Of a stretch of 64,000 bases of DNA, positions 51,001 through 60,000 are shown one piece after another. Position 1 is the first letter of the stretch. Each line of letters opens with the position of its first letter. Made by a program: the position numbers. This stretch comes from a plasmid, in NCBI RefSeq assembly GCF_988243305.1, contig NZ_OZ547137.1; one strand, written 5' to 3'.

Positions 51001-54000
51001 GGATGATAGGCGGTACTATTCCGCTGATGATTTATTACGGCCTTAATCTGATAAATCCTTCCATGATCTATGTGACGGCCCTGCTCGTTACTGCCATCGT
51101 TTCTGTATGCACAGGGACATCCTGGGGATCCGCAGGCACCGTCGGTGTTGCGTTTATGGGTGTGGCTATCGGAATGGAGGCTAATCTGGCAGCAACTGCA
51201 GGCGCTATTGTGGCAGGGGCTTACTTTGGGGACAAACTGTCTCCCCTTTCTGGTGATACTAACTTAGCCGCAATGGCAGCCCAGATAGATCTCTATGAAC
51301 ACATCGCTCATTTACTTTATACAACCCTTCCTTCATTGATACTGTCAGCCTTTGTTATGACGCTCTATGGGATGAATGGCGAGCTCGGCGGCTCAAACAT
51401 TCCCGAAAAAATTCAGCTAATCACTGAAGGATTAAAAGGAATTTATCATTTTAATTTATTGTTATTGCTACCCATTGCCATTGTCCTGTACGGTTCGATT
51501 ACCAAGAAACCAACCATTCCAATTATGCTTGTTTCGGCACTGGTAGCCATGATCAACGCCAGCGTTATTCAGGGGTTCGCACTACACGACATTGTTAAAA
51601 GTGCAGTAGACGGATTTAACGTTTCAATGCTTACCGATAAAGATGTTAATCCGCTATTAGGTAATTTGTTAAACCGCGGTGGCATGAACTCGATGATGAG
51701 TACGTTGCTTATTTGTTTCTGCGCCCTTTCATTTGCGGGAACATTAGCCTTGAGCGGCGCTTTAGAAGTCATCGTCCATAATCTGCTCAAATTAGTTCAT
51801 TCCACAGGAACCATGATTCTTGCGACTATTGCCTGTGGTTTAACAATGATTAGCGTGACCTGTAATGGTCAGATATCAATCCTGATTCCGATTGAAATGC
51901 TACGAAGTGCTTATATTGAGCGCGGCCTACATCCAAAAAATCTGGCAAGGACTGTAGAAGACTCTGCCACCATATTTGAACCAATTCTGCCCTGGACTGC
52001 CGCGGGTGCCTACATGGCAGGTATACTTGGCGTTGCTACATTAAGCTATCTTCCGTGGGCTATTCTCTGCTGGAGTGGCATTTTCTTTGCGACGCTGTGG
52101 GGGTTCACAGGCTTTGGTATCGCTCGATTGTCCAAAGAAAAGCAGCAACAGCTCATGATGGAAACCATAAATGAAAGCAAATAGAATCGGCCTGATTAAT
52201 ATATTTGATAGTAATTAACCACGTCTACACGCCGCCCCCGATTGCGGCGTGATGTCTGTTACTCTCGCTTCAGCCGTTTGGAATTGCACAGCCACAGGGT
52301 GCTCACCAGTAGCAGGAACGCCGCAGTACATCCATAGACGCTTTATGATCGACGATGATTAATCACACAACCGTGGTGATCCCGATATAGATGTCACGAA
52401 CAGTGCAAAAGTGGCTCTTCCACAACTTGGGTGGAGATTTTCATGCCAGTGGACTCATTACCCTCTGCCTGAGTAGTTCAAATCCTGCTCGACCATACAT
52501 CTGGCGTTTCAGCATCTTCAGGCGATTTACATGACCTTCGACAACACCATTACTCCAGCGACTACTGATTGCCTCACATATAGCTGCAGCATCAGCTTCC
52601 ATCCCCGCCGCCACGCGCCGAAATTCTGCTGAACCGCTTTCGTGGACTCGAGTGAACCAACTGCTTAGCTGTGATTTATTTTGGGTTTTCAGAATACGGT
52701 AGAACTCGAGTGCCAGTTGCTGCGCTATTTTCAGCTCTGAACCGCCCCGGGTTTCCTGGAGAGTGTTTTATCTGTGAACTCAGGCTGCCAGATCATCGTT
52801 TCCGATGGAAGCATAATAAGCTTTTTCTGCTTCTGCCGGAGGAGTATGGCCCAGCCTTTCCAGCAATCGTCGATTGTTATACCAGTCCACCCACGTGAGT
52901 GTGGCCAGTTCCACTTCTGCACGGTTTTTCCAGCTCTTACGGTGTATTACCTCCGCTTTGTAAAGACCATTGATGCTCTCCGCCATCGCGTTGTCATACG
53001 AGTCGCCTGTACTTCCTGTTGATGCCAGTAATCCGGCTTCCTTAAGCCGCTGTGTGTAGGCCAGCGATACATACTGAGAACCTTTATCACTGTGATGGAC
53101 CGTGCCGGACGGTCGACGGGCCCATAACGCCTGCTCCAGTGCATCCAGCACGAATGTCGTTTCCATGGACGATGAGACCCGCCACCCCACGATGTATCCG
53201 GCAAACACATCAATGATGAACGCCACATAGACGAAGCCCCGCCATGTGCTGAGTAGAGTAAGAGGCAGGGCGTAGTCGGACTATTTCCCTGCCTCTCCTC
53301 CCCGAACCGGACGTGCACCTTTCAGCGCATCCGGCTCTCCATTTAAATGCTGGCGAACGCCATTGCCACTTCTGTAAAGCGCGATGTATACGTGTTTCTG
53401 GTCTCCGTCCTCAGATAGGGATTACCTTCGGGTAGCCGCCAGCGGAACAGCTTCTTGCCTTGCCCCACCAACCGGTACAGTATTTCGCCGCTGAGCTTGC
53501 CGTGATTGGTTTTACCAAATAAAACCCACGTTTTGCTCTGACCCGGTTTCGGTGATTTACACCACCACCTCATCAGGGAAGCGATACCTGTACGGTATTT
53601 GCGGGCCAGCCAGTGAGCCAGCTTCCAGAACACGACACGGTCGATATAACTGAAGACTTTGGCCTTAAAATCAACGAACTGATAGAACATGGCCCAGCCT
53701 TTCAGTTTTCGGTTGAGTTGTTCAGCCATATCGACTTTGCTTTCACTGTAGTTGCCTGATAACAGTGCTGTCAGCGATGCGGCGAAGTTTCTGGCTTTCT
53801 CCTGCGGGATCGTTGAGACCACTCGCATCTCGCCATAACGACTGCGTTTGCGAATGATCCTGTGCCCCAGAAAGATAAAGCCGTCATTAACATGGGTGAT
53901 TTTAGTCTTATCCATGTTCAGCCTGAGTTTCAGACTGCCTTCGAGCACACCCCGACACTCCTCCCTGATGGCTTCCGCCTGTGCTTTGGTGCCTTTGACG

Positions 54001-57000: not shown

Positions 57001-60000
57001 TGCGATCACGCGAGACAATCTGTATTTCCGGATATTTTCTGAACCAGGTCGCCAGCGTACGCTGATCACGGCCGGGAAGCAGGACGAGGGGACGGTGAGT
57101 ATCAAGATTGACGATTAACGTACCGTAACGGTGGCCCCGATGCCACGCCCACTCATCAATACCGACATGAGGCGCGCCTGACTGTTTCGTCTCCGGGGTA
57201 TTGATAACCCTGCGAAGGAGAGTATCAGCACTGCAACGGAGACCCACTGCCGTTGCTGCCCGTTTCCCGGCCTCACCTCCGGCGATTAATCCCAGTTGAC
57301 GTTGTAAATTTTGTAACGCCTGTGAAGACTGTTGGTGTGAACCGGCGAAGGGAGCAAGCGACTCGGCAAAAATTTTACGTGAACAAGCCGGGTTACGGCA
57401 GTACCAGTGGCGGACGGAAAATACAAGCCATAGCGTATGTCCTGAGCAGGGTGGATGCTGTATCCGGCGCCGACGACAACTATGAACAGAGTCGCTACGC
57501 TTAAAGCATTCAGGACATTGTGCTGTTTTGCGTTTTCCGTGGAGATGGAGGGTTATACCGTCAGAGCTAATAATTTGTCGACTGCATCGCCATCCGCAAG
57601 GTAACTGTAGAAGTGTCTTAAGAGAGTGCATTGAGTTGCCCATGACTTAAAACAGCTTAGATCTTTGTTCACCAGAAAGTTTCATCCATTTTCTTCCACC
57701 CAAGTTGCGGAAGAACCACTTTTCATCCGTCGTTGACATGACGGGTTTGAGTTCCGCTGTGATAACGGAGAAAAACTGCGGGTCACGTTCGCGCTGGACT
57801 GCTGTGACCGTGAGGCACTGCACGGTCACAACGGGTGGCTTCGACAGTGAAACAGTACAGGACGTCATGCTGGGAGCAGTGGAACGCCGCTTTGGCAGCG
57901 AGCTTCCGGCGTCTCCAGTGGAGTGGCTGACGGATAATGGTTCATGCTACCGGGCGAATGAAACACGTCAGTTCGCCAGGATGTTGGGACTTGAACCGAA
58001 GAACACGGCAGTGCGGAGTCCGGAGAGTAACGGAATAGCAGAGAGCTTCGTGAAAACGATAAAGCGTGACTACATAAGTATCATGCCCAAACCAGACGGG
58101 TTAACAGCAGCAAAGAACCTTGCAGAGGCGTTCGAGCATTATAACGAATGGCATCCGCATAGTGCGTTGGGTTATCGCTCGCCACGGGAATATCTGCGGC
58201 AGCGGTCCAGTAATGGGTTAAGTGATAACAGGTGTCTGGAAATATAGGGGCAAATCCAATATCCAAGCCTATCTCTTATTTTAAGATACATCTACTGTCT
58301 GGTATTTCAGGGGGCCAGCTCAGGCGGATTTAATGGCAAAGCCGTGAAGGTAGCAAAAGAAGCCGGATTTCACCTAGCGGTGACGACCATGAAAGGCAAA
58401 GTAAAACCGGGGGATAATCCGTTGTTACTAAAACGACTTTATATCTTAAGAATGGATTCGCTGGAGACGATGTCGCGGCTGGTGAGTAACCAGCCGCAGG
58501 GATCACAATCAGGCAACCTGTACCGGAATCGCTTTCGCGGTACGTTTCATTTCGTTGTCGCCTTCAAAATAGGCGACGTTGGGTCGCCAGGTGCGAGCTT
58601 CTTCATCTGGTATGGTAACGAAGCTGGCGATGATGACAATATCGCCGACGCTGGCGCAGTGGGCCGCCGCACCGTTAACAGAAATAATTCTCGAACCACG
58701 TTCTGCTGCGATTGCATAGGTGGAGAAACGCTTGCCGTTGGTTACATTCCAGATATCAATGGCCTCGTTTTCGAGAATACCGGCTGCGTCAAGAAAATCC
58801 TGGTCAATGGCGCAAGAACCTTCATAGTGCAGGTCCGCATGAGTCACTTTCACGCGGTGGAGTTTGCCCTGCAGCATCGTGCGAATCATAACTTCTACCT
58901 TTCTACCTGTCGTTAACGAAGCAGGCGATGCCTACTTTGAGGAAATTCTCACGCAGTATTGCCCGATTTTTGTTTAGTGTCTACTCATCTGACGGCATTT
59001 GCATCAGCAGTTTGCGTACCGTGCCGAAGCGTGCCATATAACGCCTGTAACCAATTGAAATTTATCTGAACGCTGCTCGGTAAACACTAAAGAGGCGGCT
59101 GACGACGGCACACCATGACTGGATACTGCCTTCACGCAAGACAACACGGAAGGCAGGGAAGATGAATGCACCGAGTACCACACCGCATGATGCGGTGTTT
59201 AAACAATTTTTAATGCATGCGGAAACGGCTCATGACTTTCTGGATATCCATTTGCCAGCGGAGCTACGCGAACTGTGTGGATTTAGCTCGCTAGGAGCGA
59301 GGTAACAGACAACGTTAGCTTTGCGCTTACAACTTATGAGTGATCTCTATCACGATTTTACTTCCATTAAATGGTTTGTCTACGCGAGTAGATTTATTTA
59401 TATGTAATAAAATACAATATCTACCTGTGATGTATATCTGACGGATAATATCAAGGAGTTCTTATGAACACGCATTCATCCACTGTTTCCCTGACAGATT
59501 ACCAACAGGCAGCTCAGGAGCGGCTGGAAACCTCCGAGGGACGCCGCGAGTTTTGGCGAGCAACAGTTTCCTGCTGGTTAGGCACTACGATGGAATATGC
59601 CGATTTTGCCCTGTACGGCCTTGCCGCAGGTATTATCTTTGGCGATGTCTTTTTTCCGGAGGCGACACCCGTCATGGCATTACTTTCCAGCTTTGCCGCC
59701 TATTCTGTTGGGTTTATTGCCCGCCCTATTGGTGCATTACTATTCGGCTGGATAGGCGATAAACATGGTCGGAAAATTGTCATGGTTATCACTATTGGAT
59801 TGATGGGCATGTCGACCATGCTAATAGGATTAATCCCCAGTTACGCCCAGATAGGCGTCTGGGCACCGATATGTCTGGTTATCCTTCGATTTTCTCAGGG
59901 GCTGGGAGCTGGAGCGGAACTTTCAGGCGGTACTGTGATGCTTGGTGAATATGCTCCCGTTAAACGACGTGGACTGGTTTCATCTGTTATTGGTCTGGGT

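Follow-up and report, generated by a model that had tools for sequence, protein, structure and literature searches.

The window analysed here, a stretch of 64,000 nt from the plasmid contig NZ_OZ547137.1 (NCBI RefSeq assembly GCF_988243305.1), carries three mobile elements nested in one another between positions 52392 and 57738. A group II intron lies in an IS629-type insertion sequence (IS), which in turn lies in a copy of ISEc38, a member of the ISL3 family. A sequence-only reading of the window had proposed such a three-level nest, and its coordinates and arithmetic were all borne out, with the three elements on the minus strand and in one orientation. Every boundary was upheld and we hold the overall architecture with high confidence. 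Our comparisons fix every boundary, show an empty site for IS629 and another for the intron, identify each element and place ISEc38 before IS629. The features of the nest are as follows, with coordinates referring to the window.

52392..52737, minus strand: part of ISEc38 that includes the transposase gene's 3' end and a terminal inverted repeat, 100% identical to the intact ISEc38 of plasmid pNORD58_1
52735..52737, no strand: left copy of the CTC target site, present as a single CTC at the empty site of pNORD58_1
52738..56317, minus strand: IS629-type element (3580 bp) with the ends TGAACCGCCCCGGG...CCCGGGGCGGTTCA
52738..53252, minus strand: 3' part of the IS629-type element (3' exon of orfB and right inverted repeat), giving 1310 bp when joined to 55523..56317
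53253..55522 (55522->53253), minus strand: group II intron of 2270 nt, 5' GUGUG ... CUAC 3', with the same bounds in four different IS3-family hosts
53253..53339, minus strand: intron domains V and VI (Rfam RF00029, Intron_gpII)
53343..54851 (54851->53343), minus strand: intron-encoded protein of 502 amino acids (aa) with reverse transcriptase (RT) and maturase (X) domains, in sense with orfB
54852..55522, minus strand: 5' ribozyme part of the intron (domains I-III and the start of IV, assigned by position alone)
55180..55202 (intron 321-343), minus strand: hairpin GGCAGUG-AUACGUAAG-CACUGCC of exon-binding site 1 (EBS1), with the candidate EBS1 loop bases CGUAAG at 55187..55192
55523..56317, minus strand: 5' part of the IS629-type element (left inverted repeat, orfA at 56263->55937, frameshift region and 5' exon of orfB)
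56318..56320, no strand: right copy of the CTC target site, from the flank of IS629 and comparison with the empty site of pNORD58_1
56321..57738, minus strand: part of ISEc38 with the transposase start, delimited by comparison with pNORD58_1, its end at 57738 being seen also in a second copy in the window and in the comparison locus L002

The insertion of IS629 into ISEc38 is resolved by an empty site on plasmid pNORD58_1 (NZ_CP139842.1), which was found by way of the nhaC flank. This plasmid has the gene order MalY/PatB, nhaC, psiE remnant, uninterrupted ISEc38, IS2 remnant, deacetylase remnant and panD. After removal of 52738..56320, the window is 100% identical to it and gap-free over 2217 nt. 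The rejoined open reading frame (ORF) of ISEc38 reads ...CEKEPE|LKIAQQ... across the former insertion, as had been proposed for the removal of IS629 together with one CTC. The restored transposase comprises 539 aa, is identical to WP_072003777.1 ('ISL3-like element ISEc38 family transposase') and scores 374.3 on the ISL3-family model NF033550 (cut-off 180). A 3-bp repeat is by itself weak evidence, given a chance of 1 in 64; from the empty site and the restored ORF, we conclude that IS629 entered at codon 440 with duplication of CTC, so that the repeats flanking 52738..56317 are a true target duplication. In the interrupted state, the transposase ORF is truncated to 442 aa and stops at a TGA at the start of the IS629 terminus. 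The outer ends of ISEc38, at 52392 and 57738, are likewise fixed by comparison, as homology to the 95.5% identical copy in L002, which lies in an unrelated context, stops at exactly those bases. Its terminal repeats are imperfect and about 44 nt long.

The second empty site is that of the intron. Subtraction of the 2270-nt insert from the 3580-bp element leaves 1310 bp, as had been calculated, and the joined exons reconstitute an intact IS629-type element. Many chromosomes and plasmids of E. coli have an uninterrupted copy with 100% identity to it over the full 1310 nt. The joined element has inverted repeats of about 25 nt (TG...CA), an orfA of 108 aa and, after splicing in silico, an open orfB of 296 aa, which reads ...ADFTY|VSTWRGF... 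across the junction and scores 314.6 on NF033516 (cut-off 160); the predicted ligated exon junction in the orfB transcript is ...TTACTTACG|TCAGCAC.... It shows the orfA/orfB layout of the IS3 family with a programmed -1 frameshift, for which an ALIL frameshift pseudoknot is found at 55982..55866 (120.2 bits, Rfam). As for its name, the family assignment stood: the element is 98.6% identical over 841 nt to a fragment labelled 'IS629 family' by the annotation pipeline PGAP, and proteins named IS629 OrfB share a 90% cluster with its exact OrfB. The plain name IS629 has to be qualified, since the window's other IS629-like copies are only 94% identical to the element (94.3% for one copy). We therefore call it an IS629-family isoform, a probable placement that relies on labelled relatives.

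Several features mark the insert as a genuine group II intron. At its 3' end, domains V and VI match the complete RF00029 model (53339..53253, model 1-77/77, 64.9 bits against a gathering threshold of 40, E 1.7e-10). Domain V contains the AGC triad, a bulged A lies 7 nt from the 3' splice site, and the termini GUGUG ... CUAC agree with the boundary consensus 5' GUGYG / 3' AY. The two outcomes that would have spoken against the earlier reading, an insert devoid of domains V/VI and exons that fail to rebuild IS629, did not occur. The insert has the exact span and the GUGUG 5' end that had been read from the sequence, and the internal RT ORF, in sense within IS629 orfB, runs from 54851 to 53343. 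In a Pfam search, its 502-aa product gave RVT_1 (2.2e-34) and GIIM (1.3e-10) alone, with no endonuclease (D/En, HNH) domain; the YADD motif is intact. The protein scores 340.8 bits on TIGR04416 (cut-off 300), its closest solved structure is LtrA (5g2x, 6.7e-53), and its exact sequence is already known from E. coli. In the 5' ribozyme part, a 9-nt hairpin loop contains the candidate EBS1 CGUAAG, which could form six of six Watson-Crick pairs with CUUACG at the end of the 5' exon, the intron-binding site 1 (IBS1). The A adjoining EBS1 can pair with the first base of the 3' exon, U.

The nest could in principle have been created during assembly, by mis-joining of IS629 and ISEc38 repeats, and not exist in the cell. 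In line with such an artefact, the ISEc38/IS629 junction was found in 0/5,426 complete E. coli genomes and was likewise missing from PLSDB, GTDB representatives and JGI metagenomes; a few junction matches at '80% coverage' turned out to be two separate pieces of neighbouring, non-nested elements (e.g. in strain G5). But both junctions are base-exact, the 3-bp duplication is clean and the host ORF is perfectly restored, which mis-joins do not yield. In addition, a metagenome contig that is 100% ISEc38 (L003, described below) ends exactly at CTC, as expected at the same IS629 insertion. We thus regard an artefact as very improbable. Since the junction was found nowhere else, the nest appears to be a private event of this genome. 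The same nest was considered for the O104:H4 strain and rejected: there, the intron-bearing IS629 (L001) lies beside IS66 pieces, and the ISEc38 fragment of that locus is uninterrupted across the insertion point.

The contig mentioned above (ENA ERZ28648055 scaffold_4038, 1385 nt) is 100% identical to ISEc38 up to its end at CTC. An assembler that ran into the same IS629 insertion would be expected to stop there, and the contig is weak evidence that this insertion may exist elsewhere.

Judged by published description, homing site and the O104:H4 copy, the intron appears to match E.c.I4, a bacterial class A intron. It is 99.7% identical to the O104:H4 copy, which lies beside sigA. E.c.I4 has been described to insert at specific positions in IS629, IS911, ISEc16 and ISEc31; by the same account, the copies of one strain diverge by less than 1%, K-12 has fragments of the intron, and strain 55989 has a copy in its SHI-1 island (PMC3522654). 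Both E.c.I4 and S.f.I1 belong to class A, whose members are without an En domain (PMC3552965, Toro & Martinez-Abarca 2013), and a table from 2008 already gives IS629 as the host of a group II intron from E. coli (PMC2198948).

We gathered further intron loci by looking up the exact intron protein in other assemblies. At the loci L006-L015, in several unrelated assemblies, the intron shows 0/2270 differences from the copy studied here, yet it resides in a different, IS911-like host of the IS3 family, with the junction ...GTGACCTATA|TCTGG, reading DVTYI|WT (e.g. GCA_012263945.1 AASBWS010000011.1). Two further IS3-family hosts were found at L008 and L002, where the intron differs at 2 and 6 positions, respectively, while the O104:H4 copy shares the IS629 host and has 6 differences. 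All insertions are at a homologous codon, within the stretch of IS3-family transposase genes that encodes D(F/V/I)TY, and the intron bounds are equal in each. The putative EBS1-IBS1 pairing comprises six of six positions in IS629 and four of six in the three other hosts, with -6, -4, -3 and a pyrimidine at -2 always pairing; given this difference, IS629 looks like the cognate target and the other hosts look tolerated. We read the presence of a near-identical intron at the homologous codon of different hosts as the probable signature of site-specific retrohoming into a conserved transposase motif.

As an alternative to reverse splicing, the intron could have reached this IS629 by homologous recombination or gene conversion from an intron-bearing copy. 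Homology for such a conversion would be ample, with many IS629 copies with and without intron coexisting in E. coli genomes and with exons that are 100% identical. The same intron, however, occurs in hosts whose exons are too divergent for homologous recombination, so retrohoming clearly operates for this intron and recombination is not needed to explain the copy studied here. We consider recombination improbable.

Taken together, the nest is best explained as follows. A copy of ISEc38 with its DDE transposase is flanked by a psiE remnant on one side and an IS2 remnant on the other; an IS629-family element of the IS3 family jumped into codon 440 of its transposase gene, duplicating CTC and truncating the transposase; and orfB of this element is host to the intron known as E.c.I4, at the canonical homing site and in sense orientation. 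For the entry of the intron, we infer retrohoming, in which the excised intron RNA together with the RT/maturase would recognise the site in part by EBS1-IBS1 pairing, after which the RNA would reverse-splice into the DNA and be copied to cDNA. As the intron protein is without an endonuclease domain, priming may have come from a nascent strand at the replication fork, by analogy with the fork-dependent mechanism of the En-less RmInt1 (PMC8914252, PMC6698660). Because the intron lies in sense orientation, splicing of the orfAB transcript, for which this copy is probably competent, would restore the message of the IS629 transposase.

The order of events had been given as ISL3 element, then IS629, then intron. 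Its first step is compelled: ISEc38 preceded IS629, since IS629 interrupts its gene and is flanked there by a target duplication. That the intron came last is not compelled, because intron-loaded IS629 is a common element; the IS629/intron junction is present in 1,438/5,426 complete E. coli genomes, and the 5' part of the intron in 2,225 (at least 80% coverage) to 2,555 of them. With such abundant donors, an already loaded IS629 could have jumped into ISEc38 as a unit of 3.58 kb, using transposase made from spliced mRNA or supplied in trans by another copy. The element has kept its two inverted repeats, orfA and frameshift pseudoknot, the intron lies in sense orientation, and we detected no intron-less ISEc38::IS629 intermediate in the four genome and metagenome collections named above. 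The two vacant homing sites nearby (see below) have stayed unfilled, which speaks against vigorous local retrohoming and leans slightly towards a joint jump. No direct point stands against it; the intron copies themselves, with 0/2270 differences from those in a different IS host but 6 from that in the same IS629 host of O104:H4, fit somewhat better to a recent retrohoming event than to a long joint inheritance with IS629. On balance, we cautiously favour retrohoming of the intron into IS629 after the jump, as probable to a limited degree, and rate the arrival of IS629 with its intron as a substantial possibility that falls somewhat short of an even chance. IS3-family elements transpose by a copy-out, paste-in route; we know of no demonstration that IS629 transposes with the intron aboard. 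Slightly more tentative still is the fuller proposal that IS629 entered ISEc38 with the intron aboard and that both move as a 3.58-kb composite whose transposase expression depends on splicing. If true, the intron would be both a passenger and a regulator of the spread of IS629 in E. coli.

Two further IS629-like copies are present in the window, both 94% identical to the intron-bearing copy. One is full length with a frameshifted orfB (39058..40369, plus strand) and the other is truncated (48230..49142, minus strand). Each keeps the homing site, at about 39840 and 48360, respectively, in a vacant state and with identical IBS1 and first bases of the 3' exon.

Several observations weigh against the interpretation as a whole. 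The intron has not filled these two sequence-matched targets, although they are only 7 and 15 kb away. The structure check proposed for the 3' end of the intron succeeded with domains V and VI. For the 5' 671 nt, the minimum free energy fold contains the EBS1 hairpin, but its energy is no better than that of shuffled sequences (z -1.15). The intron copies, about 99% identical, are too alike for covariation to inform on domains I-IV. For EBS2, the candidate UGAAA (at about intron 226-230) would pair with UUUUA in IS629 and is unconvincing in the other hosts, and we rejected it, leaving no confident EBS2. Finally, the ISL3 family makes 8-bp target duplications, and no such direct repeat surrounds this ISEc38 copy, the flanks of which read ...gatataga and tgacgggt.... 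We take the missing duplication to mean that the flanks of ISEc38 were later rearranged, and not that the element falls outside the family.

An IS2 orfB 3' fragment occupies 57739..58258 (NF006918, 317 bits, profile positions 158-301), and its IS2 end abuts the ISEc38 end directly; the same arrangement of psiE remnant, ISEc38 and IS2 remnant is found on pNORD58_1. With an IS2 fragment on one side, a psiE remnant on the other and no 8-bp duplication, ISEc38 seems to border an older deletion or rearrangement. A fourth level, with ISEc38 inside IS2, was ruled out, as the right flank alone is IS2, the left being the psiE remnant, and as there is no target duplication. A second copy of ISEc38 occupies positions 1..1379 of the window and equals 56360..57738 except for one mismatch, with a different flank; it is cut by the window start, 43 nt short of the point at which IS629 sits in the other copy. 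The two copies, in direct orientation, bracket about 51 kb (1380..52391) in a manner resembling a composite transposon.

A 154-nt fragment of an ISEc38 end was also noticed at L006, L007, L009 and L010 (e.g. L006 8088..8241), at a distance of a few hundred bases from the IS911-like copy that has the intron. These fragments constitute a second, independent neighbourhood of ISEc38 and a host of E.c.I4.

In the wider window, a full-length match to the Hfq-binding small RNA family isrC (RF01387, 142.5 bits) lies at 48039..48161 on the minus strand and adjoins the truncated IS629-like copy. The region of about 41100..63800, with genes for GntP permease, pdxA, a sugar kinase, DeoR, KpsF, malY/patB and nhaC up to panD, a major facilitator superfamily transporter and LacI, is also found on E. 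coli plasmids (L004, NZ_CP139842.1). The nhaC region was located at 345 chromosomal and 40 plasmid places, and thus a panD-containing block of chromosomal appearance seems to circulate on plasmids.

Each layer of the nest is a well-known and common E. coli element in its known behaviour, and this kind of nest is itself already known; the only new point is that the host IS629 sits within ISEc38. The value of the finding therefore lies chiefly in annotation and in a partial relative chronology of the insertions in this island or plasmid segment, in which one copy of ISEc38 was knocked out by the nest. It also adds one more filled E.c.I4 homing site beside two vacant ones, which fits the non-saturating spread of introns described for Enterobacteriales.

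The closest known systems are E.c.I4 and S.f.I1 of E. coli and Shigella, which home at the same position of IS3-family transposase genes, those of IS629 and IS911 among them, and encode an RT/maturase without endonuclease domain, as found here. The near-uniform copies, the abundance in E. coli and the fragments in K-12 described for E.c.I4 (PMC3522654, PMC3552965) have their likeness in our data as well. Compared with the published description, no difference from E.c.I4/S.f.I1 was found except for the location of the host IS629. RmInt1 in ISRm2011-2 of Sinorhizobium meliloti is likewise En-less and homes in sense into an IS transposase gene (PMC1802570, PMC4238363), so that splicing of the intron bears on the spread of the host IS. 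In contrast to the intron studied here, RmInt1 belongs to class D (IIB3), its host IS is of another family, and its mechanism was shown experimentally, whereas that of the present intron is deduced from sequence. The same kind of stacking is known from an IS911 of S. flexneri that is broken by IS30, a group II intron and another transposase (PMC4924310). Unlike the multiply interrupted insertion sequences of Shigella and E. coli, the stack described here is strictly hierarchical, with each element in a gene of the previous one and each layer cleanly excisable in silico.

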